Assembly: GCA_963709405.1 (NCBI GenBank)
Contig: CAVPXM010000030.1
Span: forward strand, 160,001 to 224,000
Length of the DNA: 64,000 bases
DNA from: an uncultured Nitrososphaerales archaeon
Lineage (GTDB): Archaea > Thermoproteota > Nitrososphaeria > Nitrososphaerales > Nitrososphaeraceae
Reading direction: 5' to 3'
Both the position numbers and the translations under genes were made by a program. Shown in pieces: positions 2,233 to 25,450 of this stretch (position 1 is the stretch's first letter; the number at the start of each line of letters is the position of its first letter). The notes under the pieces were generated by a model. The model had not been told where the DNA came from. It saw only the letters and a list, made by a program, of their open reading frames with translations, and did not search any database.

Positions 2233-2523
2233 TCAATCTTGGACGAGAGTAACTATCTAAAGACCAGATATACAAGTTGAGCAATAATATAATGACTGCA
2301 GCGATTGACATTTTGATGGCAAACGAATCTATTTTTCGTCTTGGTAATAGCCGACTAAATAGATTAGCATATCAGGATGATGGCACTTGAAGGAAAGAAT
2401 TTGTAACATAGAGTGTATATGTTAATGAAAGTTGATGGTACATGTAATATTGCTCTCAGAAATGTCCTATCACTTGATCCTTGACAATCCTTAAGTAATT
2501 GTTATTAGGTAAGGTAAGATTAC

Positions 2524-3205: not shown

Positions 3206-3730
3206 CTATATTAGAAGAATAGAACAAGCCGAATCTTTCGACTTGCCCTTTTCCTATCGGTTTGATTATCATATATTTTATCCTAAAAGCTGGTGTTAGA
3301 TTGGCCTGTCCTTGTCTGTGATCCACAAAATTGAATGAAAAATTAAAAATCGCCTCAGGAGCTGATAGGAAGTCTTGAGTCAACAGGTAATTTCTTCATA
3401 CTGATATTTGCCCCATGAGATAATTAAATAGTCTCATCGTGAGAAGAACTACTCCGGCTAAGATGATTGATGTACTCTTTTTATATGTGCATGTTTAGCC
3501 GTCAACATATTACTCATGAACTGCGAATTGAAAACAAAACAAAACGTCAAATATAGTTTCGCCTAGTCAGTCAGCTGAGCTACATGGGAGGTACAATCGG
3601 TAAATATCGCCAAACAATTAAAAATATGCTTTCAACATAATAGTTTTGATTCCCTAAAACGCATTATTTTAGTTGTGGCCCAGTCCAATAGTTAAAGAAG
3701 GATTAAGGTCGTTTTATTTTCTTCATTCTC

Positions 3731-4561: not shown

Positions 4562-4656
4562 AGTACAACATATAAAAATCTAGTGACTATCTGATCAACA
4601 TCTAAAAATTACTATCTTGCTCTTGTTGTTGTTAAGATACATCACTTATCTAAAAG

Positions 4657-5497
4657 TTAAGTATGAAATATGCTCTTTATTTTTTCGACCTGTTTTTTTC
4701 TTACAAATTGTCTGAGCTCTTCATCATAAACACAATTATACCCTTCATTTTCTGCCTTATATGTAAGATAATAATAGATCATATATAACGAGCCACGTCG
4801 CCCTGTTACAGTCCCGGTTGAAAAGTACTTGGCGAACCTTCCTAATGCATACATTGGATGATATCCCAGTGTATGCATACTAACTCCAAATTCAAAGAAG
4901 CGATGATTCAATCCTAGAGGCCTTGTATGTCGATACTTTGCTTCTTCTATTACAGCGTATTTGTAACCAAGATATTCTGCCTCATACAGAATAGCAGATT
5001 CATAACCCATTTGTTCAGGATAACTACCATTCCATCTAGTCTTTTCAAAAAAGGAATTTCTTATATATCTACCAGCACCATGAGGCATTTCAGGTTTGTG
5101 TTTAGTATAATTGCCCGATACTACAGCTACATCAGGATTAGAATCCAAATACGAGACGATCCTAGGCAGCGTAATTGGAAGGATATTCTGTATCATCTGT
5201 AGCGATTAGATGATAGTCTGTTCTAACCAAGTTTCTTTGTTTCACGAGCTGTAACGCTGCATTCCAATTCCTAACAACTCTTCTTATATCATATCCAACA
5301 TCGGGATTTGTAATTATGAATAGCTCACTCCAGTTATGTTTCAGTTCTTCAAGAATCACTGGTGTATTGTCCTTAGAGCCATCATCTATAACTATAATAT
5401 ATTCTGGCTTCAATTCTTGATTCCTTAATGAGAGTAGCGCCGACTTGATACTGTCTTCCGAGTTCCTAGATGTCACAATAGCAAAATAACTACCCAA
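4657..5497 (-). CDS. GT2 (GT-A) glycosyltransferase, frameshift near 5180
   Basis: IIVIDDGSKDNT and ATDD motifs; the two ORFs join into one GT2-length protein. Confidence 0.8.
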
Positions 5498-5613
5498 TTA
5501 ATTATAGGACTAATGAGTAACATCAATTTTAAAGTTCTTTAATCTTTTGTTACGAGGAATCGTGGATAGTATACCAAATCCGAACGAGTCTTGCCTTTTC
5601 TTATATAGTAAAT

Positions 5614-6060
5614 CTAAGTGGTCTTTGAAATATAACAGTTGAGAAACCATCTCTTCATCAGTGTATCAAACACTGAGCAATGACCTTGGAGCGTTCTAAC
5701 TACGGGCTGAATAGATGATGAACACATGACAAGGGCACCAGCGTGAGCATATTCATATGGCTTGTTTGGGTTGCTAAGAGATGAGCCCAATGCTTCCTCC
5801 ATGGCACTAGGCCTATTGAATGATTGGAGATTTCATTAAACATATCTTGCCTAGATAGAAATCCTTTGTATCTAACCTTATCAGTTGATTTATTCTCCCA
5901 TGATATCCACATGTGTTGCGTATTTTTTTCAGGAATTCAGGCATATCCCTGCCTCTTTGATTTGCCAAGTTCTTTACGTATTGAAAATAAAACATCAATT
6001 CTACAGTAAACATGAATTATATCAGTTGATCCAGCATGCATTAAACATTGTTTATAAAAT
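5614..6060 (-). pseudogene. Degraded C-terminal fragment of GT-B glycosyltransferase family A (paralog of 11336-12497)
   Basis: HSIGLVPWRKHW and NPNKPYEYAHAG match the paralogs; N-terminal half absent; multiple breaks. Confidence 0.75.
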
Positions 6061-6241
6061 TCTCTACTTGCAAGTATTATATATTCTTTGTAAAAGTCCT
6101 TTATTCCTTATTTATCCGAGCTGCGAGTGGTTACTCCCTATGATTCATGGCCTTGCAGTTACTAAAAGTTCGCAAGAACAAATGCTACACCAACCCGATC
6201 GAATATATGGAGAATCCGTAACATATCCTCCCGGTGGAGTA

Positions 6242-6761
6242 TTACATATTCTCCGAGTTTACTTTTGCATCTATGGTGTTGGTTTTTTGAGTTTGCCCAT
6301 TATCATCTGATCCATTTGTAGTCGATGATGGCCTGGGCGCGGCGGTTCTTAGACTACGCCGAGTTATCTTTGTAAGCATTTGTCTCATTTGCAGTTTCTC
6401 TTCCTCTGATACCCTTCCATCAATTAAGTCGATTACAAACAACCACATTGTGGCTCCTATTTCATTTTCCTTAAACATGGCATCTTGCTCCACTTTCCAC
6501 TGGCTTTTTCGATGCCAATATCCAATAACTATGCCCAGGGGAACATAAAGCTGCTACGAAAAGGAGAGCAAATACCCATATACTATGAAATATTGGATTA
6601 AATGCTGGGACCTTGTCAATCAGTAGCTTGTACTGGATGGTAACAAAGTTAGCAAAAGTCATTATAAATATTAAATAAATACTGTGGCCATTACGAAAAT
6701 CGAGCCATCGTCTTCTTACCCAATTTCCAGTTGCTTTTCGTATAAGGTCTCTAGTGAGCAT
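6242..6761 (-). CDS. Conserved hypothetical membrane protein (frameshift near 6545)
   Basis: RRRWLDFRNGHSIYLIF followed by two TM segments; continues into the 6242-6493 ORF. Confidence 0.6.
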
Positions 6762-6808
6762 ATACGTTTAATGATGCTTTTTACCGTTAAAATATGTTAC
6801 GCATTCAT

Positions 6809-8391
6809 TTAATGAGTTTGGTTGATAACTTTCGCCGTCTGCATCATGTTCGAATACACTCTGGATATAGTGACGATTTCAGATGAATAAACGCTTTTAA
6901 CCTTCAGGCCACGGAGATCAGGACTTTCTCCCTTCAATGCGAATATGTAAGTATTTTGGGATTTTGAATTTCGTAAAAAATTGACCAGACCATCATTGGT
7001 ATTGAAAAAACGAAAGGTTCTGTCGTTTTCAAACTCCAGTTCCATCCAGCCCCTTAAGTGACTTGCTCCAATTATAGTCGCATTTGGTCTAGTATTTTTG
7101 TTGATCCAATCTATAGCAGACAGTAGCTCAGGATTCTCCTTTATATCAACTGAATTGAACTGCATGCTGACTGGTTCGAACGATCCTACATATCCACGCA
7201 CAATATCATACAATATAAATGGGCTACCATATGGTAATGCAATATAGCCGATTCCAATAATACCAAATATCGCTATTGCGATTAAAAGGACAGAATACCC
7301 AGTTTTCAAGTTTCTGGCACGAATCCTTTTGCTAAGGATGATGAACCCGTATCCTCCAAAAATGGAAAGAAAAATTCCAGTCAATATGATCCATCTGTTG
7401 GCAACCAAAGCTTCATTATTTGGAAAGAGTATCCATGAAAACGAACCAAAAAGAGTGATTAGGAGTGCTATTTTTAGGATTTTATTATTACCCTGGTATC
7501 GCAAACCTAGCAAAGATGTCGGCACTAAGAGACCGTTCACAATAATAAAAGAAATTAACAGATTGAATCCATTGTAAGAGTTGGGGATTGTTCCCGAATG
7601 TCGAACTGTAACTGCCTGATGTTCAATAAAACTAAAATTAATAACGTTATCCCACAGATTAGAGCCCGTGAACACGGCGATTATAAATATACTGAAGGCA
7701 ATAATTGAACTCACAAGGGCGATTCTACAATTGGATTTGACGGCATATATAAGTAGAGAAAGCGAAAATAACCCACCAATCATCCTGTCCGATACAACGA
7801 CAATAGAGCATAAGATTAGTGATGATATCAGTTTCAGTAGTTTGTTCTCATCAATGCTTACTCTGTGAACAGCAATTAGTGAAAAGGCGAACAACATTAG
7901 CGATATGGAAAAGACATCTTTGTGCAGATCCCATGACGTACGAAGCACGGCCATTTGTACGATTACAAACACTGATAAGAACGTGCTTTCTGCGATACTT
8001 ATGTTCAGCATTCTTATTCCCATCACAAATATTGAGACAGAAAGCATTCCAAAGATGACCGTGGCTGATATTAAAACGGTAATGTATGGGGACGACCCGA
8101 TAGGTACTTAGGCAATAAATGCAGTAGATAGACATAGAACGGAAATTCGTGCGCGGTAGTATGCCAATGAAAATCGAAATTTGTCACGTACAGGGATGTA
8201 ATAGTTAATAACATCATATCCTATAGGATACGGATATGCGAGCATTTCGGGAACGAGTCTAGAGTACGAAACCAGCTGAAAAAACCAGCGCTGCTGCACA
8301 GTATTTATCTGTTACAAGCCGTGAAATCGGTGAAATAAGGGTGTACAATCGAGTCAGACGGGTACCAAATTAATATCGTGTATTGCTTCAT
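6809..8391 (-). CDS. Polytopic membrane protein, GT-C/oligosaccharyltransferase-like (frameshifted 5' part)
   Basis: Many TM helices; PYPIGYDVINYY loop; C-terminal AIDWINKNT...II motif of GT-C-type proteins. Confidence 0.6.
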
Positions 8392-9610
8392 TCATAGGTG
8401 ATGTGTATCTTTTATCTCACGAGTAATAAACAATTTATACCAAATTTCTAAGCTCAATAATTGAAGCAATTTGCTAATATATCTCGGATCTCCGGTTTGA
8501 TCTATTCTAGATAATGCGTTATGGTACCATTTTTGATCTATTATTTTTTCCTCAAATATTCGCCCTCGTTCCAAATTAGATGTTACAATGTCTTTTCCCT
8601 CATTTGACCATAATGTATTCAAGTCCATGCCAAATCCTATTTTTTCGTTCTCACTGAACTCATGCTTGGAGGTCCGTTTTAGGATAGATCGCAGTGGAAT
8701 CTTCCCGACATCATTTTTAAAATCATATTTCAAATCTGAAGGAATTTTGGTGGAGAGAATTACAACTTCGTCGTCCAAAAGAGGTGCTATTCCATTAATA
8801 TTAAAATGGTTGAAATATTTCTCATTTGTGGGTACAAAATCATGCATTAACTTACCATGATAGTCTGCATACAACACCTGGTCTAATGGTTCTAAATTGT
8901 TGTTGAAATATTTTTCAAATATTTCGTAAATTGAAAACCAATTAAATTTCATCTTTTCTGCGAACATTTTTTCTGATCATCTACCCAATCACGCTCATGA
9001 CATTGTAGATAGATCTGAATACGTTCTAGCGAAGTAGATTTTGATGTAATGGTTGAGAGGTATTTCCTATATCTGAACGTATATCCTGCAAATAATTCAT
9101 CACCACCATCCCCAGTAAATAGGATATTAGATGTAGATTTTGCCTCCTTGATAAAATAATATTGATATATATTCCATCTCGGTTCTTTAATTATGCTTAA
9201 CATTTTGACTAGATCTCTTAAGGGGTTTTCGACAACGATATGATTGAATCCTGCTCCTTTGCTCTCTGATATCTGCTTAGCAATCAAAACTTCATGATCG
9301 TCGTAGAAGCTCTACGCTATAACAATTTATGTCGATAGCTGGGAATTCTTCTCGTATTAGCGAAAATATGAGATTCGAATCTACACCTGTGCTCAATGCA
9401 AGAGCAATACGGTTAGTGTTATTTGTCTCAACAGACTTTTTTATAATACGACGCAGAGTTTTTTCTAGTTCCAATGGAGTCGGAATTGGTTCTACGCTTT
9501 TTCTTTGAGCCGAAATTTGATCCGCGGTAATTTCAATAATTTTACTGTATTCTTTGGATAAGAAGGGTCATATCTCAATGTCAGCAAATTACATAGATTT
9601 ATCAACGGTT
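8392..9610 (-). CDS. Asparagine synthase C-terminal (AsnB-like amidotransferase) domain protein, frameshifted
   Basis: ALSTGVDS PP-loop, FTGDGGDELFAGY, GKIPLR and KIGF; LLTLRYDP near the N-terminus; 5' coordinate approximate. Confidence 0.8.
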
Positions 9611-9710
9611 AGTCGTACTCCTGCTTTTTAAAAAATATATCGTAAGACTTCTGGGGTGCAAATCTAAATTCTAATATGAAGCAAAGGGAATCTATGGATA
9701 TACGCTGTTC

Positions 9711-10040
9711 TTAATTTCTATATATTGATAGAATTTTAATGCATAACAACGATGGCCCTTGGAACTTGGATTCATTCGTTTGTATGCTCCTTCCTGCATC
9801 GCACCTATTTTTTCTGGGGAGTGATATTTCTTTACATATTCTATTCCCTTTTTTTGATACTTTTTGCTTGGTGCTTGTGTCTTGTATTAAAGCTTCTAGA
9901 TCTTGCCTAAGATTCTGCATGGTAGTCATGAAGATCGGTGGTTTGTAATTATCGCATAACTTGGCAGACACGTATGCAATAACCGGCTTTCCAAGTGCCA
10001 TACCTTCAAGTTCGAACGTCACAAACCAGCCAATTTTACG
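9711..10040 (-). pseudogene. C-terminal half of GT-B glycosyltransferase family B
   Basis: IGWFVTFELEGMALGKPVIAYVS matches the 12379-13395 product; no N-terminal half adjacent. Confidence 0.8.
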
Positions 10041-10168
10041 GAATGAGATAGAGCAATTAAAATAGATGACATTGCTCAGGGATTATCATTTTTCTTTTGT
10101 TGCACAATGGAATTCTTCGAGGAGGTGGCAAAATTTAGAGCTGCGCCAGGGAGATATATGCTAAAATA

Positions 10169-10800
10169 ATGAAGGATAGCTTTCATGCCAATAATGCAAA
10201 ATCCCAATTTCGGCCAGATATTCTGACAGTTGATGGAGGTGACCTACATATTGCTGCTCATGAATTAAGAACAACTAGGTTCTATGGCGGAACTGAGGAA
10301 AGCACTACTGGTGTGAAGAGGTTAGAGATATTACAGTCAAGGAAAGGCCTGAAATATCCTGCTGATAGCGGTGAATAATGCATATACAAAACAGTTATTC
10401 GATAACCGACTGGCTTGTCTCTATCGGGGAAACAAGTAATAGTATGCGGTGACGGCTGGGTAGGAAAAGGTGTATCTGTCAGAGCAAGAGGGATGAGAGC
10501 AATTGTTACCATAACAGAAATTGATCCCATAAAAGCTCTAGAGGCACACATGGACGGATTCAATGTTAAACGATTATCCGAGATTGCGGCACTTTATTGA
10601 CATCTTTATAACACGTACTGGCAACGGGAGTGTTATTAGATAAGAGCCTACCATAAAAATGAAGGTTGGGGCGACACTGGCTAACGCTGGACATTTCGAT
10701 GTTGAAATAGATATCGATTATCTTTCTTTTCAGGACAATTTTCCGTTTTGGTAAGGTCTAACGTAGACTGCTTTAAATTTCGTGATAAGAAACAATATCT
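10169..10800 (+). pseudogene. ahcY: Adenosylhomocysteinase relic
   Basis: DGGDL, GGTEESTTGV, KQLFDNR, VCGDGWVGKG, EIDPIKALEA and ANAGHFDVEID; internal deletion after DNR, stops, both ends missing. Confidence 0.9.
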
Positions 10801-11061
10801 GGTTTTCAATTTTTAAAACATTCTCGCATTTGACAATAATCGTTCCCGTCTGAATACCCTGCGACTTTGATCTAATGTTTAGGATATAGTCTGGTTATGG
10901 AAGATGAAATTCATTTAGAAAAATACCGGACATATTGAGATCATAATGCTGACTGCTGTAACGAATTTAAGTTCATAACCTCTTTCCAGGATCTCCTTAA
11001 TTACGGATTGAATTTTATAATATTAGGCCTAGTACCCGATAACTAGAACTAGCTTCTTCAT
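10785..11061 (-). pseudogene. wecB: UDP-N-acetylglucosamine 2-epimerase, N-terminal relic (not in ORF track)
   Basis: Manual translation across frameshifts: MKKLVLVIG-TRPNIIK...QHYDLNMSGIF...PDYILNIRSKSQGIQTG. Confidence 0.8.
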
Positions 11062-11335
11062 AATTACGTTGTACTTTTTGATAAGTGTATCCAATCCCCA
11101 TTCCCTAGTATCTTGCTCGAAAACTGGCTTCTAGTCTTCTAACGTTTGATTTTTAGGTAATTGTAACTGAATACAATCGTCCGAACTCGGTATTCTTTCC
11201 CACTCGCTTACTCCCCTTTCCCGAAATTATTAACGCAAAGCAGTTGTTCTGTGGTTAAACTCACGGACAGAAAGATTAGACAAAAATACATTTATAATTC
11301 TTATAAAAGCACACTATATTTCAGTATTACAAGTC

Positions 11336-12497
11336 GTGAGGATCCTACATTTTTCGAATATAAGTTTGCCGTATTGGAGAATTGAGAAAGGCAGCCATCA
11401 GTGCATTAAATCGAGGCCACGAGATTTTTTTTGTAGGAAATGATTCAGTCAATTATAATAATAAAATCTTCTCTAAAATATACAAAATTAATTGGACAGC
11501 AAAGGCGAGATTAGGAATTCCGACGTATTGGTATTATCTAAAAAAGGAGGTGGGAAAAGTCATGAAGGAAGTAAAACCAGACATAGTCCATGCTCATAAT
11601 ATTTTTTCAGCAAAGATGATCTCTGAATTTGGGCTACCATTCATATATGACGATCATGAATATTGGTCTCAATTTTCAAAACTAATTTCTGAAATGGTTG
11701 ATACATTATCTTGGAGAGACAGATCACCAGCGGATACTGTAAGAACAATTGCAATTGGTTTACCTACAAAAGTAAGAAGAACTATTATAAATCGATATGC
11801 AATACATTTGTGGACGAACTGGGAAAAAGAAGTGGTCTCGTCCGCTCCCACTATTACAGTATCTGATAAAATCGCCGAAGGGTTAAGAGTAACAGGTAAT
11901 AGTGATAAAGTCTTCATAGTACCAAATTTTCCGATGAAATTTGAGACTGAAAATCTCGCGAAGCCATACGTCCAATCAAGGTTATCATCCGTTTATGCAG
12001 GGTCTGATGGCCTCAACAAGCAAAAAATACCAAACCGAAATATAGACGGAATTACAGACATATTTATCAATCGAAATATAGGCGAACTTACCATTATTGG
12101 ATGGGAAGGAAGATCTTCGTCTGAGAAGATTAGGTATGCTGGTCTTCTCCCTCGACAAGCCATGTTTACTGAAATGTTCGAACATTCGATCGGATTAATA
12201 CCGTTCAAAAAACATTGGTCACATTTTTTTGTGAGCCCAAACAAAGCATATGAATATGCACATGCTGGTCTTTTTGTTCTGGTGCAACATCTTCTCTAAT
12301 ACCCGTACAAGACACCTTGGAGGACAATTGCATCACATTTGAAGATTACAATGATCTGGTATCAAACTCAATAGTACTTCAGAGACAATCTAGAGGAGCT
12401 CTACCAGAAGAGACTAAAAATATTTGAATATGCCCATCAACATTTGATTTGGGAAAATTATGAGAAAAATATATTTCGTGCGTATCAGTTGAGTTGA
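11336..12497 (+). CDS. GT-B (GT4-like) glycosyltransferase family A, frameshifts near 11390 and 12285-12370
   Basis: GTG start, RILHFS, KPDIVHAHN, IYDDHE, SPNKAYEYAHAG, WENYEK. Confidence 0.8.
12378..12475. repeat. 98-bp inverted repeat, left copy (partner 17634-17731)
   Basis: 97/98 identical to the reverse complement of 17634-17731 by manual alignment. Confidence 0.9.
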
Positions 12498-13395
12498 GTA
12501 TGTCAGTTTCTATTGTGCTTGCCCGCGAGTAATACTGTTCAAGATCAGCAACTACCTTTTTGACGTCGTGATTCTGAGCATATTGAAGACCGCTCTTGCC
12601 AAGTCTTTGTCTTTCTGATTGGTCTTGCAATAGAGTTTCTAGATCACTTTTGAAGGTTTCTCTTGTTGTCCTATAAATTGGGGGTCGATATTTTGAATAG
12701 AGCTCATCCGACACGTAGGCTATCACGGCTTTTCCTAACGCCATGCCTTCAAGCTCAAATTTGCCAAACCATCCCATGTCCAAACGGATTTTCCCGATTA
12801 CAATATCTGAATTAGCCATTTGTTGGATCAGCCTTTCATAGCTGTAATTCAAAGTTGTAATCACTCTGCACTTCTGCTGATTTTTCAATTCTGTCAATAC
12901 TTGGCTGTAGTAATCCGGAACGCTTGGTTGAAGTTTATACGCTGGGTAATGAATCAATTGTATAATGTCATTTTCAGTCTGTTGTTTATATTTCCTGTAA
13001 TAGTCTAAATTCAAGGCTGTTGGTAGCCAATTGCCATTTGGCGCACGTTCCAATAAATCAGGCGTTGCAACAAGACAGAAGTCGTACTCCTTTCCAATTT
13101 GGCGCAGATCCCCGCCATGATAGTGTTTTAGATATATCTTATCTCTATTTCGTTTCTCCAAATTTTTTTTTAATGAACCATAAGGATAATGGTAATGCCA
13201 CAATTCATATTCTTGTAATTTTTTAAAGAGTTTCCATCTAGAAATAGGTGACCTGTAGTTGATAAAGTTTCCGCCAAATAGATTGCAAACTGTTTTGCTA
13301 AACACAAAAACATCCGTTGTGTGTCCATTTCTTCTTTGTTCTTCAGCTAGAGTGATAGGTACGCCGGCAGTATTATTAATATGTGCTATTTTCAA
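12379..13395 (-). CDS. GT-B (GT4-like) glycosyltransferase family B
   Basis: MKIAHIN, HYHGGDLR, ELEGMALGKAVI; true 3' end may be near 12500 because the tail overlaps the convergent gene. Confidence 0.85.
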   Translation of the reverse strand: MKIAHINNTAGVPITLAEEQRRNGHTTDVFVFSKTVCNLFGGNFINYRSPISRWKLFKKLQEYELWHYHYPYGSLKKNLEKRNRDKIYLKHYHGGDLRQIGKEYDFCLVATPDLLERAPNGNWLPTALNLDYYRKYKQQTENDIIQLIHYPAYKLQPSVPDYYSQVLTELKNQQKCRVITTLNYSYERLIQQMANSDIVIGKIRLDMGWFGKFELEGMALGKAVIAYVSDELYSKYRPPIYRTTRETFKSDLETLLQDQSERQRLGKSGLQYAQNHDVKKVVADLEQYYSRASTIETDILNSTDTHEIYFSHNFPKSNVDGHIQIFLVSSGRAPLDCL

Positions 13396-14938
13396 ATTTC
13401 CTGGTACTTTTTATTTGCCGTTATTAATGGTTACTCACGGAAAGGCGGTGGGGGTAATTAAGATTTAGCAGCAGAAATGGGCAAGAATATCGATAAGATC
13501 TAGCGTCACCTCATCTGTCCCAATAACATGATAGAAGAGATTCAAAGCTAAACTTTTTTATTTCACACTTTCTTAACAATGAAATCCCCTTCTGATTTAG
13601 CTCCAGTCAAGCTGGTCATTTAATGATGCTAAATCATATTCATTAAAAAATACAGAACTCTTCTCAGGCAAGGTATTATTTTCGAATAGATTATTTAACA
13701 ATGGAAGTGAATAGAAGTGATGGACAAAATTGCGAATTCCTAGAGTTTTTCTTCCATCCCTATAATTATTACCACAATCGCATCTATTACCGCCACCACA
13801 GTTTCGTGGATTCCATCCCATCGATTGATACAAGCCCGAAAAGATGTTATTTTTTCGCTTCAAGTCCGCACATGATACCAAGATTACATCAAATCTCTCG
13901 CTGCTTCACAGAAGATCGGATCTGTCTGTACTGGTTAGAACCAGAGAAGGCAATCTAACGGTATTTCCTCCCCTCAAAGGAAATGATAGCTATCGAATAT
14001 TCTCAACATCCGGGCATAAGAAGTCTCATGTGTCCTCGCGAAATAAATGGAAAGGCTTAGATTAATAACAAGTACAGTAAGGACACCGATGGTAAGATCG
14101 CATTTGTAGCAGTGACATTTACGACGGTCGCTTATGATATCTCCTTTTATCGCTTTTATGGCAGCATACAAAGAAATGCCCCCTGGAGTAAAGATTACCA
14201 GTGATGTTAACAGCATTGTAATATCATTGGTAATTACTTTGTAAAGTGAATATGATTATTATGACAAACTAATTTTATGGCTACAGCTTTAGCTAACTCA
14301 TAGCAAAATGACCAGAGATACTTTACATAATGAACTTATCGTGCCATTTACATAACTGTTAACCTATTAAGAAGCAAGGCCTAATGTCTAGTAGATTATA
14401 AGACAACGCTATTAACAAGACGTCCAGTATCTATTAAGGCGGTAATTGCAACCTATGAACTGCAATGCAAAAAGGGTCCAGTAGGCGTGCTTGGAATTTT
14501 CGCTGAAGATGTGTTACCTAATAGCAGATTCGATAGGTTCTGCTCTTACAAGATATCGGAACGCCAGATTAGTCACTATAAAATTAGTATCATAAAATTA
14601 GCGGTTATCACCTCTCCTCCCAATAGCTTCGAGTCATTCTCGAATAAGCCATATTTCGGATGAATATCATGATATTACTTGATGTTGACCTATGAAATAA
14701 TAGAGATATAGATAAGTCTAACAATGTTATGAAATATTATCCTGATTTTCGGATTAGATCGTGTACTCTCTAAGCGAGTCCATATGCAATCGCTGTAGAA
14801 TATTTGATATATAGTGGTAGGACTTGACGGATTTGACGACGATATTGACTATCTATTTGACGGTTTTGGATACACAAATCCTTCCGGTTAGTTTGTAGCG
14901 TAATTCTTATAGCTTCCTTTTTCATTCATTATCAAGCG

Positions 14939-15140
14939 ATGCCGGCAAACAAGTCATGGCATGTTTATAACGAATCCTTGGTTGAACGAGGGCGAGTTCT
15001 AATTGATGTAAGGTTCCTCAAATCAGCTAATGATGAAATAAAGACGATGAACAAAGGCAAGGTTTGAGCACCGTTTCAAGATTCTTATAGTTATATAGAA
15101 TTTGTTTCTTCTTGATAGTTGGCTTTAAGATTCTATATGC
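14939..15140 (+). mobile_element. IS5-family transposase N-terminal remnant (not in ORF track)
   Basis: MPANKSWHVYNESLVERGRVLIDVRFL...MNKGKV*APF...FLIVGFKILY; WxxYNESLVxRG is the IS5 (IS903-type) N-terminal motif. Confidence 0.75.
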
Positions 15141-15633
15141 TAGGTGAAGACCTGCTTTCGAATAAGTTCTCTCCACAGAAAGTAGAAGATAGACGAAAAG
15201 TCATGCTTTACAAACAGTTCATGAATCTGTAGAATAACAATAATATCTATATTGATCCCACATATAAGAGCTCATCCGATTTTTAAGCAGAGCGCTTCTG
15301 GCACTCAGCGTCTCCATGGATAGACTGACTAATCTTTTCACATAATGAATTAAAGGTCATCTGAGTCATAGATAGGAAGAAATTACCGCATTCTTGCACA
15401 TTATAAGCAGATTGAAAAGTTCGACTTTAACGCTAAAATTCAGGACCGTAAATGACGGGAATGTTGCCGAGGAAGAGAAGGTAGCAGCAGATGCGAAGAT
15501 GCGTTTCAACAATATTGAAAGATTCTGACAGGCGGATTATGAGTGCAAGCGATACGATTGTGCAGTCAGAACCTCATTCGAAGGTTAATCTAGCAAAAGA
15601 GTAATCGAGTCGTCATTCAATTTTAGAGACAAT

Positions 15634-16536
15634 ATGCGAATACTGCATGTATGGGACCAGGCCGGCGTTGCATGCGTAATGGCAAAATATCAAAGATTGC
15701 AAGGGCACGATTCTAATGTGATCAGGATTAGTGGCGTTGACAAATACGGCATTAACGATTTCTATCGAGATTTTGTTTCCTTTGTTCCTATCGAAGAATT
15801 TGTACACAGTTGTATAGAAAAAGCGGAATCTGTAGATGTGATTCACGTCCACAGCATGACTGATATTCTCATTAAGCTTCGAAAGAAATTTGGTAGGTCA
15901 AAAAAGATCATTCTTCATTACCACGGAACAGACATCCGTGGATTATGTGAACCTGATGAAAAAAACTTCCACCCAATACAGTTTATTGAATTCCATATTT
16001 CTGAGACCCAAAGAGAGTAGCTAGAGCAATCCTTAGAAACAGAATACATTTAAAGGCACAAAGGCTGGCAGATGCAGTGATTGTCTCAACTCCGGATTCT
16101 GCGACGTGTTGCAAAATGCACATATCTTCCAAATCCGGTCGACACTGACTATTTTAAAGCAGACACAATTTATGGAAAGAAGAGGGGGGCCATAACTTTA
16201 AACACTGAGGTAACGGACACACAATGGACGCTAGACTATTGTAAAAAGAATAACATTATCTTCGAGATTGAAGTCTACGACAGAACTCAGATTCCCATTA
16301 TGTATGCTGACATGCCGGACTTTTTGAAACAATACTCGGTATACGTTGATATCAGACGTGTCAACGGAACAGTTTTAGAAAATCTAAGTAAGACGGCATT
16401 GGAAGCACTGGCATGTGGGCTGAAAGTTTTGGATTACAAACTTGAATATCAGGAAGGTCTTCCTGTGGAGCATAACCCTAAGAAGGTAGTTTCCAGGCTT
16501 GCAAGTATTTATTCGAAAAAGAAGCCTGATTTATAA
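15634..16536 (+). CDS. GT-B glycosyltransferase family C, frameshifted
   Basis: MRILHVWDQAGVA, HYHGTDIR, LPNPVD, SKTALEALACG. Confidence 0.8.
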
Positions 16537-16779
16537 GGTCACATCCTTTTTGACTTGTGCCTTTCTTGATATCACCTATCTTGCTTATGCCTCAGTGAAG
16601 TCGGTAAAGTCCTGACTGAATTTTGAATTCTGGCTTTGTCTTATGTCAGGGGTTGAAACGCTACCACAAGATTAGCACCGCCATAGACACACTAGTTCCT
16701 CCTGAGTTTATAGCGTAGCGAATAATTGTAGTTTTTGAGTAGCGACAGCCGATCTCTGTAGGCTCCTTCATCATTCCTC

Positions 16780-16987
16780 GCAAAAATCTCGATATCTATT
16801 GATTGATTTCTGCAAAGCATACTGTGGCAGCAGTGTAACGCCGCGTGACACTGTGCTAGACAAGAAGAAAAATACATTGAAGTTTACGATAACAACAAAT
16901 CATCCGACGATGTATGCAGACACGCCGGACTTTTTGAAAGGATACACACTATATATGGATAACAGATTTATCACTGTCTGGTTATAG
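16780..16987 (+). pseudogene. Degenerate second copy of the family C glycosyltransferase middle region
   Basis: TMYADTPDFLKGYTLYMD versus IMYADMPDFLKQYSVYVD upstream. Confidence 0.6.
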
Positions 16988-17611
16988 TTGAATTCTCCAA
17001 TAGGATTGTCTTGTAGCGTAACTTAAGATTGTTCTATATTCTTTCTGTAAGGTTGAGCCAGAGACGTAGCCTCGTCTGCCTCTAACTTATCTGTCATATT
17101 CAAATCGGAATTTTCAGACATTTATCCTCACGAAAATAACAGTTCGGGATTCAAATAGGATTATGCCCATTATTCGTTCCGTCGCCAACCATTGCGCACC
17201 AACACGCCAAATCGATTATTTATACTAGATTACAGCAAGTCATAGGTCAAAAACATGGCCCGTAAATACCCTAGAATTGCCGGCACGAATATCGAGCTCG
17301 AAGATTATTGATCTATATATTTTGAAGCTGACTCAGACTCGAAGATCGGTTCAAGGCTGTTCGAAACGCTATTACTTTGCGCACGAGGTCGGCGGGCCTA
17401 GCCACTAGGATAGGCTTTTTTTGCAACTCAAAGTAGACGCATCTCGAGATTTTTCGTTGGATTCAACACCTTTGTACAGGTACAAAAAAACAGGCATTAC
17501 AGCGACACTTTACAATATGATTTGTCTTTCCTGTAGGCACGGAGCATTTGTAGAATCTCTACCAAAAAATTCCCGAATGTTATTTCTGTATCATTCGAAC
17601 TGAGAATTGAT

Positions 17612-18744
17612 TTAACATAGCTGATATGCTGTCAATATATTTTTCTCATAATTTTCCCAAATCAAATGTTGATGGGCATATTCAAATATTTTTAGCCTCT
17701 TCTGGTAGAGCTCCTCTAGATTGTCTCTGAATACTCTAATTGTGAGGCAAGGTCATGATAGTCTTCAAAGGTAGCACAATTATCTTTCAATGTTTGTATG
17801 TACGGTTCTAAATGAAGAAGTGCACATGATAAGAAGGCCTGAATGTGCATATTCATACGCTTTGTTAGGACTCACGAATGTGTGGGAAATGTGTTTTTTC
17901 CATGGTATTAATCCGATCGAATGTTTGAACATTTCTCTGAACATTGCTTCTCTTGACAGAAGCCCTGCGTAATTGACGTTTTCAGACGATTTCCCTTGAC
18001 TACCAATTAATGTCAAATAACCGATGTTGCGACGCATAAATAGATCAGTGAGACCCTCTATGTCTCGATTTATTTGTTTTTTCTGCGCCTCGATACCTGC
18101 ATAACGCGATGACAACTTGGTATGGATGCATGGCCGATCAAAATCTTTTACTTCATGTTTCATTGGAAAATTCGGAACTACAAACACTCTGTCAGAATTC
18201 CCTATGACCCTAATTCTTCAGCAATTTTATCAGATACCGTGATCGTCGGAGAAGATGGAAATAAGCTCTTTTTCCCATTTTGTCCATAATCGTATGGCAT
18301 AACGCTTTAGAAAATTTCTCGCAACTCTTCTAATCGTATTCCTTGGTAAACTGGGCAGCAACAGGTTTTGTTTCCTTATCGTCTCCCTGGGCCAGGATCT
18401 TTGAAAATTCTGACCAAAATTCATGATCATCATATATATATGGTAGCCCAAATTCAGATATTTATCTTTGCTGAAAAAATATTATGAGCATGGACTATGT
18501 CAGGCCTAACTTCTCTTATCACTTTCCCAACTTGCTTTTTAACAGAATGCCAGTAAAAAGGAAATCCTCGCCTTGATCTTTCTGTCCACTCAATCTCATA
18601 TTTTCCAGAAAAAGTGTTTGTGTGATAGGTTTTTGAATTTCGTCCTGCAAATACAACATCGTGGCCTACCTTTAACGCTGTAATCGCTGATTTTTCGATT
18701 CTCCAATCAGGTAATCTGTCGTCGGACAAGTGCAAGATTTTCAA
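17612..18744 (-). CDS. GT-B glycosyltransferase family A paralog, several frameshifts
   Basis: LKILHLSD, RPDIVHAHNIFSAK, VVPNFPMK, SPNKAYEYAHSG; colinear with 11336-12497. Confidence 0.8.
17634..17731. repeat. 98-bp inverted repeat, right copy (partner 12378-12475)
   Basis: One mismatch to the left copy (AGA/AGG, synonymous). Confidence 0.9.
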
Positions 18745-19810
18745 TTCTGGGGATAGTTTTGATCCCCTTGTAAAATAAAAACCCACTTTTTTAATTAATG
18801 CCTATACGGGCTTGCGACCTTGTCTCATTATTATCTGGCCTACCCGACATCCTAATATCTGTCAGCAGTTCAGGGATGAGTCGCATCTCATTTGAAAATT
18901 CCTTTAAAAGAGAACTATATCATCAATTAGGTTTTAGTCAAGTCCATTATAACATTTTGAATAATTGTAAAAATATAGACAAACTCGTGACCGGTCCCCA
19001 ACTAATTATTTTCGAAATTCATTGATAGGACTATCTTAAGATAACAAAGTGCTAATGCGGATAAAATTCTCAATCACTCTTTTGTGCTTAAAAAAGCGTT
19101 ATTTTGTACTCGCATGGAGACAGAATTAATAGATGCAATTGCACGGACAAACAGTGAGGAATTTTGGTATCAATGCTTGCAGTCTAATGTAGTCGAGGGT
19201 TGCAAAATATGTGATTATAGACTTGATAAGCATAAGATGAAAAACATTAAAGTACGATAGTTTTGAAATACTGCTCAGGAGAACATATACTTAATATGAA
19301 ACTCAATTCGGATTTCGGCGAAGATGCCGGGATGAAATTTAACCTCGAAAATCATAGCATGAAATTGAAAAAAGTAGGCAAGCAATATTATCAAACCAGT
19401 TAATAAAGCCCTTTTAGACCATAAATGGATAGTTACTATGTTTGGACGCACTGCTGACTGCGTATGTCAAAGAGAATGGTCGGACATTAAAGTTAGAATT
19501 TGATCCGATTGACAACATCCTTGCCGTGCATAAGGCCGATTGAATGAAAATGGATATAGAATGTGCAAAGGTGCCTTGAAGTCTTGCTTACCTACACAAT
19601 CTGTTTAAATACAGAAATAATTGGTGAAGCTCGGAACCAAGTTATAGGTTCGAAATCTCAATATGCACAAGCCAATGAATAGTAGCATTGTCCCCTCATT
19701 ATTTTCGGCATCTTGTGTCGCCATTAACTCATTTTAGGTATGTCACAGACAGAAAACCAAAGTAGTAAAGTTCGTTGACACATAAGAAGAAAGACTAAAA
19801 AAGATACATG

Positions 19811-20050
19811 TCACGAGTTCGTGACATTAAAGTGCCAGTCACTATTAGTGACTGGTAAAATTGGGCTCCTATTTAAAAATGGTGATCGAGGTATCAATCC
19901 TTTAACAGCTTCAATCTTAGCAGTATGAGTATCTGTGAGGATATTTGCGCCCTTTTTCACAGTTTCGACCCTTCCGGTATTTTTTCTTAGGGTTATACAT
20001 GGAATCCCTAGTAGATAAGACTCCTTTTGTATTCCTCCTGAATCTGCCAA
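19811..20050 (-). pseudogene. wecB: UDP-N-acetylglucosamine 2-epimerase, C-terminal relic
   Basis: DSGGIQKE, PCITLRKNT and ETV..GANIL motifs; joined directly to a truncated GT. Confidence 0.85.
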
Positions 20051-20588
20051 GTACTCTGATTATGTCACACTTACCAGTCTCCTGCAACGAATCTAATATC
20101 GCCGAATAAACATCATCATGCCCATACATTTTATAATAAGGATAATGGGCTATTCTGACTCTCCCTTCACGTTTATTTTCTGCCCGCGCTACCAACTCGT
20201 CGATATACACTGGACTAGGAAGCCACGTTCCATTAGGGGCATATTGTAACAAGTCAGGAGTCGAGACGATACAAAAATCATCATCATGCTTCCCCCTAAG
20301 ATCGTCACCGTGATAATGCTTGATGTATATCTTTCCACGTTTTCGTTTTTCTAAACCCACTCTTAACGAGCCGTACGGATAATGATAATGCCATATATCA
20401 TATTCTTGCAACCTTCTAAATACTTTCCACCTTGAAAAAGGGGATTTGTAATTTATCATAATTCCACCAAACTGATGATAGATCTTTGTGTTGAATACAT
20501 AAACATCCGACAAATGTCCTTGTAATGTTTGCACCCGGGAAAGAGCAGAGCCGATACCTGAGGTATTGTTTATATGCGCAATTTTCAT
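20050..20588 (-). pseudogene. N-terminal half of GT-B glycosyltransferase family B, truncated
   Basis: Closely parallels the 12379-13395 product up to CDIIRVL, then runs into wecB sequence. Confidence 0.8.
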
Positions 20589-20690
20589 GTCCGTGGTAAC
20601 TAGTAAAGTGACATAATAGATAATGAACCTATTGAGATCGCAGGAATAAAACGTAGTATAGAAATAACTAGTTGAAAAACCAGTAAATTC

Positions 20691-21622
20691 CTAAATTTCA
20701 GAATTTTTATCAACGTGCATCTTGTATTTTTTCTCAAGAATCTGATACTTTTGTAAGTCGACAAGTCTATTGAATTCATCGAACGTAGTCATCATCTTTC
20801 TGTGTTTTACTGTCGTTACCTTTCCTTTTTAACTCTGTAAAGACTTCATTAACTGCGTAAGTAGCTCGGATATAATCCTGATAATGGGAAAACGGCAATT
20901 CTATATCCAATATCAAGGAGTCGTTTTGCGTTCATATTCGGTGTGATTCCATCTTCGATTATGTTTGCGACCAATGGCGCGTCAATTTCGTTAGTAACTT
21001 TCTTTAATTCTGCAACTGATCTTGGAGCTTCTATAAAAATCACGTCTGCACCAACCTCTCGGTATGCTCTTCCGCGTCTTATAGCTCTCATCCAATCCTA
21101 GCGGTGCTCTCGAATCTGTTCTCGCAACTACAATGAACTCTTTGCTCTTCCTTGCTTCCAGAGGCCTCCTCTCAACTTCGAGATATAATCTTCCATTCCG
21201 ATAACATCTTTACCTTGCATATGTCCGCATCTTTTTGGCCAGATTTGATCTTCTATAAAGATACCGGCCGCGCCTATCGATTCTAAATCGCGAACGATTT
21301 TCCAAACGGTTAACGGATTGCCATAGCCTGTGTCTATATCGACTATAACTGGCGAATCCACAGATCGAATAATTCGAGTTGCATTCTCTATCGTTTCGCC
21401 AGCATTTAAGAAGCCGTAGTCTGGCATTCCAAGCAGCGAAGCAGCAGAACCGTATCCGGTCTGAAACATAGCATCAAATCCAACATTCTCCGCTATTTTT
21501 GCAGTCAATGCATCAAAAACTCCTGGAAGAACGAGAATATTCTTCTTGTCCTCAATCTTTTCTCTTAAAGATTTATTATTTTTCTGCTTCCTCAATTGCT
21601 TTTGTCTAAAAGGAGATTGCAA
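20691..21622 (-). CDS. prpB: Isocitrate lyase/PEP mutase superfamily protein, methylisocitrate lyase-like (frameshifted)
   Basis: DIDTGYG, IEDQIWPKRCGH, ARTDS, GADVIFIEAP; C-terminus MTTFDEFN in a third frame. Confidence 0.75.
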
Positions 21623-22204
21623 TTATTAAAGGATCTGTTTCGATGGATCTTCAATATGACTTTTCGATATATTTGAGAAATACTCAATTCTAGCCTTATG
21701 TTTATTATTTGGACTTACAATGCTATTCCAATTTCTTAATTTTCTGAACTGCTCTTATGAATAATGATGTTTGAACATCCACTCCTCAACAAGATATTGC
21801 TGCTATTCATATTTCTTGATTATTAATTATATATCAAAAGTATTCCCCTCAACTTGCGATATTTTTAATTGCCATTTTTGAATATGACTATAACTCAATT
21901 AAAGCCTGTACTTCAAGATTAGACTACTATGTCTCCTATCCGTGAAATTTTGATATTTATCCAAGCGAATATGCTCCCCAGGACATAGCAAAATGCCTTT
22001 GCCCAATCGCGTATTGATTGGAGCGGCTGTAGGGAATAATGAGAATTGAACGTCCTAATGGCAACGATATCAATACCTGACAATGATTGGTCACCAATAT
22101 GGGATTACCTACAAGACACAAATATGGCATCACAGAAATAACTATTGGGTAACGCAAAGAAGATTTGTATGTTTTTTTGCTAGGGTTGCTTAGGAAACTG
22201 TTAT

Positions 22205-22450
22205 ATGAATATGAGTAAAAGAAAGGGCATACAAAAATTGCAAGACGACGATGGTCACTTGTCCAGATTAAAAAAGAATGCTCTTGACCAGAAGGAACCT
22301 GTTGTAGTAAAAACCATTATTGATACTATTGCAGCATTTGGGAGGGAGGGAATAGAACCTATACTAGAAATTCTGAGGCAGTCGACAGATAAGTCAGTGA
22401 AAATACACGGAAGTGAAGTAATTAGACGAATAAAGATGCTAAATCCTTAA
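22205..22450 (+). CDS. Small HEAT-repeat-like helical protein
   Basis: VKTIIDTIAAFGREGIEPILEIL resembles a PBS-lyase HEAT repeat. Confidence 0.5.
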   Translation: MNMSKRKGIQKLQDDDGHLSRLKKNALDQKEPVVVKTIIDTIAAFGREGIEPILEILRQSTDKSVKIHGSEVIRRIKMLNP

Positions 22451-22638
22451 TTTTATGATTCAATTTCCCCTATGACGCAGATTGTATCGACCTCCACTAT
22501 TAATTGAAACAGTAATAGAGTAAGTGTCTCGATTGTATTTTTAACCCGATTCGAGCCGCTGCTTTCTAACCCATATATTGCCAAACACTAATCGGTCGAT
22601 CACATTGTTGGGAAGGAATCGGTTTATGTGATATAAAA

Positions 22639-22707
22639 CCCCCTAGTTGTAACACGATCACCCTAGACGCAACACATTACGAGAACTCCCGGCTTCGCAA
22701 CAGCACT
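22639..22707. mobile_element. Orphan end of a related IS6-like element
   Basis: Reverse complement reads AGTGCTGTTGCGAAGCCGGG; CCC..GCAAC-type motifs lie 19, 46 and 66 bp from the tip, like the neighbouring element's ends. Confidence 0.7.
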
Positions 22708-22829
22708 TTCTAAGGAGTCCTGCTGCAATATCGGGCTCTATTCACTAGCGTTGCATTCGGGTGCTAAGTGTTGCACGACGGGAGCTTATTAATTTATAAA
22801 TAGTCTTCTATAACATTATACGAGAAGTA

Positions 22830-23294
22830 TTGTCGGATGATTAGAAGAAGCAAAGAGACTTGCTACTAATTATTTAGAGGCTCAGTTAAAAATGGCTGAA
22901 AAGCTTTTATTGTTAGATGATTCTGATATCCAGAAGTTCAACAAGTGGTACAAGAGTTTCCCCTATGGACGTCATTGCCTGCTAGATTACTTGAGTTAAA
23001 TAATAGGAGAAATAAAACCAAGCAATAAATATCATTTAATTTCATATTGAAGTTATTGAGCAAGCCTGAAGCACCGCCATTTGATTTATTAACACTATAT
23101 AAAAACTTGGAGAGTCTTGGGAGGATTTTATCATTCAAACTAATGCGGTCATGATGACCAATTATGATGCATGGTTCGACTCAACTTGTAAATACCTTTG
23201 CGATTTCCTTAAACCTCAGGTTCGAGCATGGCTTGAGGCAAATTCTAGGCAGTTAGTAGAAAAGAAAAGTCAGAGAACTGCTCCACTTCAGTAA
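22830..23294 (+). pseudogene. Decayed passenger gene inside the element
   Basis: Protein-like segments LEEAKRLATNYLEAQLKMAEKLLLL... and ...WFDSTCKYLCDFLKPQVRAWLEAN... split by stops; TATA-like TTTATAAA at 22793-22800. Confidence 0.4.
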
Positions 23295-23535
23295 GTAATT
23301 ATTTGGAATAAGAGATGCGAATGCAGCGTATGGTATGTCCAGCGCTGAAGCGAAATATTGGAAAAAAATAGGCATTGCAACAGGCTACAACTGGTGAGCA
23401 TTGCCCTAGTGGCAGTGGGAGCCATAGTAGCCTACCTCAAACTAGCGAACAGTTGCGACTGCTAATAACAGTCAAGTAGTCCACCTAAGACAACCCTCAT
23501 TTTTTCAGCCATAATAATGTGTCGAGTCGTCAGCT

Positions 23536-24462
23536 TTAAACATTTTGCTTCTTAATCCAGCAACTCTCCTTCCCGTAAGAAAACCACGAAAAGCCATGCT
23601 CTATTAATATCTCGTTAATATCTCTCCAGTCTTTCTTATTCATCCAGTCTTTAGGTTTGATTTCGATGCTATCATCTTTACGAATTATATCTAGTTTATT
23701 AACTCTAATACCTAATTCGAAAATGAACGGCTCCACTTTCCCTTTAACCGCCGCCTGTCTCATTAGGCTTTCCACTTTGTTATGACCTAAATGCAGTTCT
23801 AACCCTGCTTTTTCTGCGGGTGTCTGCTTCTTTAATGCCTGATGAGGTCTAATGAAATTATGATGAATACGCATGGCATCGACTAGTTCCTGTGTGGGAT
23901 TTGCTTTGTCCAATCCATGCATGACGCTTTCTCTATCCCTTACGGTTTCATTCAGCCATTCGACCTTCGAGTTTAATCCCTGATGTCCTGAGCCTATGCT
24001 TCTGACGTTTTGGATCTTCGGATTCTTTAGAGTAAAAAGTTCTTTATTAAACGCATCGTCATAGGCTGGTAGTCCATCATGAATTAGAGCTGAAGGTAAG
24101 GGTGCGCGCCGTTTCATCTCCTTAAATAGCGCTACACCTGATTTGGTGTCACGTTTCTGGCTTATCCTAGAGCATATCCAGAATCTAGTAGTAGAATCCA
24201 TTAGATTCCATAGCCATGAATAGTGATTATCGAACTGTCTGTTAGGGTGGTTCTCTGGATTGCTTAGCATCATCTTAGATTCATTATTTTCCTTACGGAC
24301 ATGTAGCATCATTTCGTCTACCTGATAAACACCTCCGACCTGTGGCACCAAACTGTCCACATATGGCTTAACTGTATTACTGAACTTACGTAACCATCTA
24401 CAGATAGAAGAGCAATTAATTCTAAAGTCGTAGAACTGTTTCAGAAGGTCTGCTATTTTACG
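23536..24462 (-). pseudogene. IS6-family DDE transposase, N-terminally truncated
   Basis: HTH RKIADLLKQFY...SICRW in frame upstream of the ORF call with no start; VDEM, WLWNLMD, IHDGLPAY, NSKVE, HHNFIRPHQAL..TPAE. Confidence 0.85.
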
Positions 24463-24505
24463 CTACGGCCAAATGGTTTATAATGAAAGTTTACAAATTC
24501 TTCAA

Positions 24506-24763
24506 TTATCGTATTTCTATGTATGAGTAGTCTTTCTTCACATCTGTTCCGCGCTTCATTTCTTTTCTCGAATTTGTAACTAAAAAACCTGTCAGTACTT
24601 CCGAAATTATGAGTCCCAGTAGTAGAAGATTTGGAACGGTTCCCTCCTTCTGTCCGAAAATTAGGCCTAATTGAGCCCCAAATAGCACGACTACGAGTAT
24701 CGTCACAAGTATACCTATGGAAATTATTGTACCAAGGATGTGACGCCGTGTGAACCGTATCAT
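24506..24763 (-). CDS. Small two-TM passenger protein
   Basis: 85-aa ATG ORF with two hydrophobic helices; TATA-like sequence ~25-30 bp upstream, just inside the right end. Confidence 0.55.
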   Translation of the reverse strand: MIRFTRRHILGTIISIGILVTILVVVLFGAQLGLIFGQKEGTVPNLLLLGLIISEVLTGFLVTNSRKEMKRGTDVKKDYSYIEIR

Positions 24764-24903
24764 GACGAAATATTCTCCTTCGTAGCGATATAAATAACTT
24801 AATAAACTTCAGTAGATCGGCAGAGACTCCCGGTATGCAACGTCTAGCACCCGAATGCATCAGTCATTCAAAGCTCCCGATTTTGCAGCAGGACTTTCTA
24901 AGG

Positions 24904-24914
24904 AAAAGAATATA
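24904..24914 (+). promoter_or_regulatory. Putative BRE/TATA of the PadR gene
   Basis: AAAAGAATATA about 27-37 bp upstream of the ATG at 24941, spacing typical of leaderless archaeal mRNAs. Confidence 0.5.
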
Positions 24915-24940
24915 ACTGTCACTAGCGATATTAGCAGTGG

Positions 24941-25450
24941 ATGCTTTCGCATTGGTTTTCTCGTGTTGGTAGTTCTATTCCAAGAGGATTTTCTAGACAT
25001 TATGTTTTGGGTTTACTTAAGGAAAAACCAATGACAGGAAAGGAGATCATGGACAGAGCAATATATGAAAGTGACGGAAAATGGAGGCCATCTCCGGGCT
25101 TGATATATCCTATGCTGGGAAGATTACTTGAAGAGGGTCTAATCGATGAAATAGAAAACGGCAGATATAGGACTACCCAGAGCGGGGAAGATACAGCTGC
25201 TGATATGAAATCTTTGCACAACATTGTACAAAAGCAGTTAGATGTTATACTTCGAGTGGGAAACGTGGGCAAATTTATGGCGTTTGATCTGATAGATAGA
25301 GTGTCTGCAATAGGATCCGCACTGAGTTCAAATCTAGATAGAATGACCGAACAAGAAAAGGAAAAATACAAAGAATTTCTCTTAACTGAGTTAGCCAAAC
25401 TTGACGACCAAGAAAATATCAATCAGAAGATCACTTTAGAGCAAGAATAG
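24941..25450 (+). CDS. PadR-family transcriptional regulator
   Basis: PMTGKEIM...[21 protein letters not shown]. Confidence 0.9.

Follow-up and report, generated by a model that had tools for sequence, protein, structure and literature searches.

The window is the whole 64,000-nucleotide stretch of DNA analyzed here, from contig C30 of an uncultured Nitrososphaerales archaeon whose assembly (genome code G000; 100 contigs, 4.83 Mb) was searched. Upstream of a gene for a PadR-family regulator, it carries a defective insertion sequence (IS), named IS-A, whose left end faces the solitary end of an older relative across 8 bp. It is likely that one 8-bp target received two members of an archaeal IS6-like family in succession, because the family inserts at a fixed position upstream of one type of promoter. 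The finding generalizes to a site-specific archaeal transposon family. It is carried by the anatomy of the site, its target duplications, its empty and polymorphic alleles, and its recurrence at single-nucleotide precision, all of which are observed. The parts of the site are the following, where BRE stands for the TFB recognition element.

22638-22707, minus strand: solo R-type end of an older family member, tip at 22707 (gapless alignment, leave-one-out profile)
22708-22715, no strand: left copy of the target duplication, TTCTAAGG (from the sequence; corresponds to ATCTGAGG of G003 and ATTTAAGG of G005 in empty sites)
22716-24895, minus strand: IS-A, a defective IS6-like element of 2,180 bp with two L-type ends (inverted repeat, end profile, duplication)
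22716-22787, plus strand: left end of IS-A, with three phased repeats (end alignment and profile)
24824-24895, minus strand: right end of IS-A, tip at 24895 (inverted repeat, alignment, profile)
24896-24903, no strand: right copy of the target duplication, TTCTAAGG (from the sequence)
24904-24915, plus strand: BRE/TATA-like box of padR, AAAAGAATATAA (from the sequence; kept in occupied and empty relatives of the genus alike)
24920-24939, plus strand: operator-like element CACTAG-N8-GCAGTG, in which the motif CTAGCGATAT starts 26 nt from the IS-A tip
24941-25450, plus strand: gene for a padR-family regulator of 169 aa (PF03551 PadR, 5.8e-10, 39.5 bits against a cut-off of 27)

Rightward from IS-A, TTCTAAGG is followed directly by AAAAGAATATAA, then by CACTAGCGATATTAGCAGTG, and then by the padR ATG at 24941. 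This order confirms an earlier note on this DNA, which had set the right duplication flush against the promoter box, about 30 bp before the PadR start codon. A BRE/TATA role of AAAAGAATATAA is inferred from its position about 26-30 nt before the ATG, and the padR transcript is probably leaderless. The operator-like element, which reads CACTAG-N8-CTAGTG in other genera, is a predicted repressor site.

IS-A is bounded by inverted arms at 22716-22784 and 24827-24895 (69 nt, 75% complementary) and has a perfect 8-bp direct duplication, TTCTAAGG, at both edges. A profile of the family's ends scores both of its ends at E = 1e-17 to 1e-19. Its coding content comprises a transposase remnant and a small open reading frame (ORF).

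23536-24462, minus strand: truncated transposase gene; a 274-aa ORF spans 23536-24360, homology continues to 24462, and the N-terminal zinc-finger part is missing
24506-24763, minus strand: hydrophobic ORF of 85 aa (ORF list; no Pfam family)

The 274-aa transposase ORF is the sole recognizable gene of IS-A. It matches PF13610 (DDE_Tnp_IS240) with 37.7 bits, above the cut-off of 27 bits, and stop codons interrupt the reading upstream of it. By tblastn, the IS-A transposase covers residues 172-475 of the intact 476-aa transposase of G006, a genome of the same genus, at 75% identity. Because residues 172-475 alone remain, IS-A is defective. Moreover, its right end is of the left-end type, with 78% identity to the promoter-side end of the G001 element and 60% to the right end of the G006 element. 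With two left-type ends and the first 171 transposase residues gone, IS-A looks like a rearranged non-autonomous derivative.

The other partner at this site is the diverged third end that the earlier note had described with its tip at 22707, facing the left end of IS-A. This end is borne out, and all parts lie where they had been placed. It aligns without gaps over ~70 nt with eight other family ends, with three phased repeats in register. Each repeat is a GTTGC-like word followed by a GGG block, and the GGG blocks lie near positions 18-20, 44-48, and 64-68; the earlier note had placed motifs at 19, 46, and 66 bp. A profile built without the third end recovers it at E = 3.1e-4 across the assembly, with the tip exactly at 22707. 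The sole other extra match of this leave-one-out profile is the allele of the same end on contig C92. The third end is 53% identical to either end of IS-A and 76% identical to the right end of the G006 element. On these identities, it is the R-type end of a different, older member and not a copy of the IS-A ends. The third end and the right end of IS-A share one orientation (direct repeat D1, composed of similar 31-nt repeats), and the body of the old element therefore lay leftward. The earlier note had found no partner for the orphan end in the window. The same now holds for the entire assembly, where none was found among the 100 contigs and family ends total six, three in the window and three on C92.

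Two elements entering one 8-bp target one after the other, as first proposed from the window, is supported by further alleles of the site in the species. The 17-kb contig C92 is a second haplotype of window positions 446-24895 with a 10-kb indel. Its identity to the window is 99% over 446-5576, 91% over 5952-10046, and 95% over 20046-22789, and window positions 10047-20045 are missing from it. On C92, the same old end is followed by a different family member, IS-B, of 2,726 bp, which has a full-length but frameshifted transposase and extra ORFs. The left IS-B junction on C92 is short of 10 nt, with just the final GG of the duplication left. Four public metagenome runs (X1, X2, X5, and X7) were compared at the window locus, the best of which holds 0.27 of the sampled words. 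In contigs of X1, X2, and X5, the right end of IS-B is followed by TTCTAAGG and the padR promoter. In X7, a 570-nt contig links 22700 to 24889 and omits 2188 nt, the length of the 2180-nt element plus 8. This contig consists of the old end, a single TTCTAAGG, and padR, without a second element, and its left part has C92-type base differences. The simplest reading of these sequences is that the X7 allele is the unoccupied precursor, and that IS-A and IS-B entered independently in two strains.

The same position is used across the genus. Seven genomes were compared, G000 and six others (G001-G006), and the order from an 81-aa gene to padR is kept in all six.

22205-22450, plus strand: upstream host gene of 81 aa (ORF list; no Pfam match; conserved left neighbor of padR in the genus)

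Matches to the 81-aa gene beside padR in G001-G006 range from 72 to 79%. An examination of the padR upstream region in relatives, which the earlier note had suggested, turned up clean empty sites in G003 and G005. There, the TATA-like box is the same and is immediately preceded by the 8 bp ATCTGAGG (G003) or ATTTAAGG (G005). In G004, a 2.5-kb element from another subfamily is flanked by a perfect ATTTAAGG duplication, with native DNA on the far side. G006 has a 3,073-bp element with the intact transposase and a perfect CTTGAGGA duplication, and in G001 this position is taken by an element in reversed orientation. G002 repeats the architecture of the window: an intact element from a third subfamily lies between two copies of CACGAGGA, with an old end before the first copy and padR after the second. 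The same phosphodiester bonds are thus occupied in five of the seven genomes and empty in two. Judged by differing duplication sequence, orientation, or subfamily, we count at least seven insertion events in the genus. In G001 (L021, ~1340), the far end of the element and ~350 bp of host DNA are lost, and this host DNA is retained in G006 (L026, 1230-1581) and G002; the G001 loss is an adjacent deletion of the IS6-type kind.

Beyond the genus, a sequence-only profile of the family end, R1, was run against 151 genomes of the taxonomic family. Matches occurred in 41 of them, and all listed matches were fetched and re-scanned. This yielded 83 distinct ends, 82 of which have at least 60 nt of outward flank. 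The operator word CTAG[CT]GA[TC] was located by its offset from the element tip, with 1000 shuffles as the control. In 26 of the 82 flanks, from 7 genera, the distance from the tip to its start is exactly 26 nt. Four further flanks have it at offsets 24, 25, 27, and 27 and one at offset 33; a second copy stands at offset 38 in 14 flanks. The shuffles gave a maximum of 1 at any offset and a mean total of 0.23. The elements of G004 and G002, which belong to two other subfamilies, likewise lie at offset 26. These counts speak against insertions random relative to promoters, which the earlier note had named as grounds for giving up its proposal of target selection. Together with the five occupied genomes of the genus, the counts strongly support target selection.

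Distances to the TATA box and the start codon, also called for in that note, were measured across the family. The motif-bearing sites number 30 (26 at offset 26 and four within 2 nt), and at 15 of them a PadR orthologue follows, with its ATG 45-47 nt from the tip. PadR orthologues at 14 loci have 62-95% identity to the G006 PadR. At the remaining motif-bearing sites, the same promoter element precedes genes that are different or unclear. Across the 26 flanks, the start of the first TATA-like 8-mer varies between offsets 8 and 15, whereas the motif offset is fixed. The operator-like element is therefore the better ruler, although delimiting TATA boxes by eye is difficult. Ten empty padR promoters keep the TATA-like box, CACTAG-N8-CTAGTG, and the ATG, whereas the 8-mer and everything to its left are unconserved, which indicates that the position is set by distance on the promoter side. 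As the target, more than 20 different 8-mers have been used. They vary between genomes and are identical on both sides within a genome, which points to separate events rather than one inherited insertion. Nine elements have two ends, seven of them with perfect 8-bp direct repeats, one with 7/8 matching positions, and one with inverted 8-mers. The second ends of the G094, G122, and G154 elements were not found in the regions fetched. Orientation is readable at seven sites, with the transposase directed towards the promoter at three and away from it at four. A second recurrent target is the sufC promoter, with six ends in two genera (sufC matches TIGR01978 with 310 bits against a cut-off of 212.8). 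Among 127 genomes of other families in the order, weak end-like matches occur in three, none of them beside the motif.

Stacked elements, as in the window, recur in the family. A count of tandem ends, another step proposed at the outset, found that ~21 of the 82 ends (18 by pattern and three by eye) face another IS end at exactly 8 bp, in ~10 genomes and with partners of other subfamilies included. Facing pairs of like with like are spaced exactly 8 bp in four of four cases. Five stacks (G000, G002, G021, G008, and G058) directly adjoin a padR-type or sufC promoter. Three more (G013, G091, and G166) are tied to such a promoter through an identical 8-mer on another contig, so that all eight resolved stacks are at padR-type or sufC promoters. 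These stacks would follow from re-use of the promoter-proximal duplication. One element of 1.4 kb (L042, G091:C123:2592-4003) is flanked by reverse-complement 8-mers and lies between inverted ends of another subfamily. Parts of PMC7986276 give flanking 8-mers of this kind as the pattern of intramolecular replicative transposition with inversion.

The number of facing ends raises the question of what attracts the newcomers. Resident family ends might do so, as IS26 is drawn to IS26 and IS30 to its own ends, with the link to promoters secondary. The facing pairs themselves fit this explanation, as does the ~100-fold preference of IS26 for sites next to a resident IS26 (PMC7986276, in part). In addition, in genus g1 the host DNA bordering the empty target on its left terminates in AACT, as the element tips do. 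We nevertheless hold attraction by ends to be unlikely. G004, G006, and G069 have primary insertions at the identical position with native host DNA on the opposite side, and resident ends are therefore not required. The stacks all sit at the two promoter types, and their facing ends are unlike, with 53% identity in the window and different subfamilies in G002 and G091. By contrast, the targeted mode of IS26, as set out in parts of PMC7986276, works only where ends and transposases are identical, and it produces no duplication or spacer. The AACT context was also considered as a component of the site; it is not conserved in the empty sites of eight other genomes, which belong to other genera, and was dropped. 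The earlier note had left open whether newcomers choose existing ends or the promoter side, and the evidence comes down on the promoter side. Targeting may, on the other hand, be an illusion, in that insertion is random and only copies in a harmless spot upstream of the promoter of a dispensable regulator survive. Genomes show survivors only, the site spares BRE/TATA, and ~25 of the 82 flanks are of other kinds. Selection of this sort would tolerate many intergenic positions, yet the same nucleotide is used in 26 flanks from seven genera by three subfamilies, and both strains of one species gained different elements at the same 8 bp. Survival without targeting is thus very unlikely.

Two further explanations concern the junction itself. 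Abutted ends with a short spacer typify copy-out-paste-in intermediates (parts of PMC7986276). As an alternative, the earlier note had named an integrated end-to-end circle junction, and a tandem dimer of a single element comes under the same heading. We reject this reading as scarcely credible. The facing ends come from different elements, and the partner of the left end lies 2.18 kb away (24895) with a matching duplication. The orphan end also occurs without IS-A in the X7 allele, and the spacer equals the duplication. The other is an assembly artefact, in which two strains were mis-joined at a repeat. One assembly holds two haplotypes of the locus, C30 and C92, and C92 terminates exactly at an IS end. 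The junctions of IS-A are not spanned by any public contig. A mis-join would not, however, yield a perfect 8-bp duplication at clean end boundaries, and the same architecture was assembled independently in G002, G021, G008, and G058. A 298-nt contig of X1 is identical to the transposase core of IS-A, with zero differences. An artefact is extremely unlikely on this evidence.

Several points weigh against successive, promoter-guided entry into one target. Instead of being the precursor, the X7 allele may conceivably have arisen by a later deletion between the similar 31-nt repeats of D1. As no contig of the four public runs spans either IS-A junction, these junctions rest on the assembly and on internal logic; window positions 22805-23713 and 24522-24824 have no covering contig in those runs. 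Surviving insertions are filtered by selection, and occupied sites within one genus (e.g., g16) may be inherited, in which case there were fewer events than genomes. The sufC sites are without the CTAG motif. Some 25 of the 82 flanks lack both promoter types as well as a facing end; either the family inserts at other places too, or these flanks come from the far side and from decayed copies. TATA-like words occur in 10 of 29 flanks (the ~25 unclassified and four missed by the class filters), which does not set these flanks apart from random genome positions (0.35). By this crude measure, a generic rule of insertion at any promoter or TATA box is not supported.

For successive entry at a promoter-fixed position, we propose the following mechanism. 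The staggered cut would be placed so that the tip lies 26 nt upstream of the CTAG[CT]GATAT operator-like motif. The tip would thus come to lie immediately upstream of BRE/TATA and ~45 nt before the padR start codon, leaving the core promoter intact. Each newcomer would re-use the promoter-proximal copy of the duplication, and elements would accumulate with identical 8-mers between them, the most recent being closest to the promoter. In the window, the older element would have decayed to its solo R-type end, and the newer IS-A is defective as well. Our best guess is that docking is by the N-terminal zinc-finger region common to the three subfamilies, either onto the operator DNA or onto a protein bound there. 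By eye, the end repeats are unlike the operator, and reading of the operator by the transposase would therefore need another domain. Among candidates for what fixes the position at the promoter, the operator or its repressor is favored by a little over even chances. TFB/TBP at BRE/TATA, the guide suggested in the earlier note, is a less probable candidate, and other readers would make up the rest. Tentatively, the family may find its site by docking on a promoter-bound protein, either a PadR-type repressor on the operator or one TFB paralogue with TBP. If true, docking would be a prokaryote-side counterpart of the promoter tethering of Ty3 and Tf1. It would also account for the precision to a single nucleotide, for insertion in either orientation, and for the use of only a few promoter types (padR-type and sufC).

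All three subfamilies have an N-terminal SWIM finger, a zinc ribbon, and a helix-turn-helix in addition to the DDE_Tnp_IS240 core. PF13610 is above its cut-off in four of four transposases (37.7, 34.3, 42.4, and 57.6 bits). Pfam scans of the 224-aa accessory ORF of G006 and the 85-aa ORF of the window gave no matches; no wider search for a selector was made. The 8-bp target duplication is shared with IS6/IS26, the core is probably of the IS6/IS240 type as well, and the inverted 8-mers in G091 and the adjacent deletion in G001 are hints of replicative side products. IS6-type elements are regarded as having little target preference. The IS6 elements differ in their ends of ~14 nt (14-20 bp), a length of ~0.8 kb, and a single ORF. 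In the present family, the ends are conserved over ~70 nt with three repeats, and the elements range from 836 to 5079 bp (0.8-5 kb) with extra ORFs. The SWIM finger and zinc ribbon of the transposase set it apart as well, and its score against NCBIfam transpos_IS6 is 76.6 bits, below the cut-off of 125. Strong site preference such as seen here is not mentioned in excerpts of the IS6 reviews PMC7986276 and PMC6807381, where the one preference described is for sites beside a resident copy. Harmer and Hall, in part of the latter, regard archaeal "IS6" elements as distant relatives, perhaps outside the family, and without experimental data.

Other systems offer parallels for the targeting. Tn7 inserts at attTn7 through the selector TnsD, in one orientation and at a fixed distance from a recognized conserved sequence. 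A fixed distance (here 26), a variable cut site, and a harmless landing place beside a conserved gene are common to both, whereas the present family uses both orientations and has no known selector. Ty3 and Tf1 are eukaryotic retrotransposons with an integrase and are tethered to promoter-bound factors. Like them, the family integrates next to promoters and spares coding DNA; it differs in being a DDE transposon, for which tethering is only proposed. The targeted conservative insertion of IS26 resembles the stacks in that the newcomer ends up beside a resident family end. It differs in that here an 8-bp duplication lies between ends that are 53% identical, and a resident end is not required. 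Full-text literature searches, supplements not included, returned in the accessible text no paper on promoter-specific or padR-associated insertion of archaeal IS6-like elements. The whole word "IS6" is absent from the survey of thaumarchaeal mobile elements PMC6563490, and the portions of PMC13343696 that were seen hold no passage on promoters or target sites.

A whole family, with at least 7 genera and three subfamilies, has attTn7-like precision for a promoter-proximal safe site. It offers a testable system for asking how a simple DDE transposase gauges its distance to a promoter or operator; the transcription machinery of its archaeal hosts is of eukaryotic type. Compact archaeal genomes can carry transposons at low cost in this way. 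In assemblies of these organisms, the stacks repeatedly break contigs and give rise to haplotype bubbles. The changing upstream DNA also suggests that padR regulation has perhaps been rewired repeatedly.

To the left of the solo end lies a stretch that may belong to the history of the older element.

22451-22637, no strand: non-coding stretch from the 81-aa gene to the solo end; its first ~28 nt align with the intergenic DNA of relatives

Past these ~28 nt, the stretch has no match in G001-G006 and is unique to the species, and the end profile does not match it. This unique part may be the remains of the older element. A "fourth, older end" at ~22545-22571, a look-alike of TTTCTAACC noticed by eye, was dropped, having no profile match at E < 10.

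Further observations concern the elements and their targets. A small ORF with an F-x-Q/K-W-Y word, seen by eye near one end of IS-A (window ~22893-23000, plus strand), recurs in IS-B (C92, 14403-14591, plus strand) and in the G002 element (L022, 3487-3738, minus strand). It is a possible candidate for an accessory protein. In G008 (contig C39, L102), a miniature family member of 836 bp is separated by 44 nt, which include a TATA-like box, from a 95-aa ORF downstream. This ORF has no Pfam match and by eye resembles a ribbon-helix-helix protein. The word CTAG[CT]GATA occurs 141 times on both strands of assembly G000, in many cases upstream of genes in the context AAATC-[AG]-CTAG-[CT]-GATA, which suggests a regulon-type operator.

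Elsewhere in the window, a ~160-bp repeat at 14205-14363 has copies of 88-99% identity on nine other contigs of the assembly and looks like a miniature mobile element. Positions 11373-12488 and 17621-18707 form an inverted pair of ~1.1-kb segments with 70% identity.

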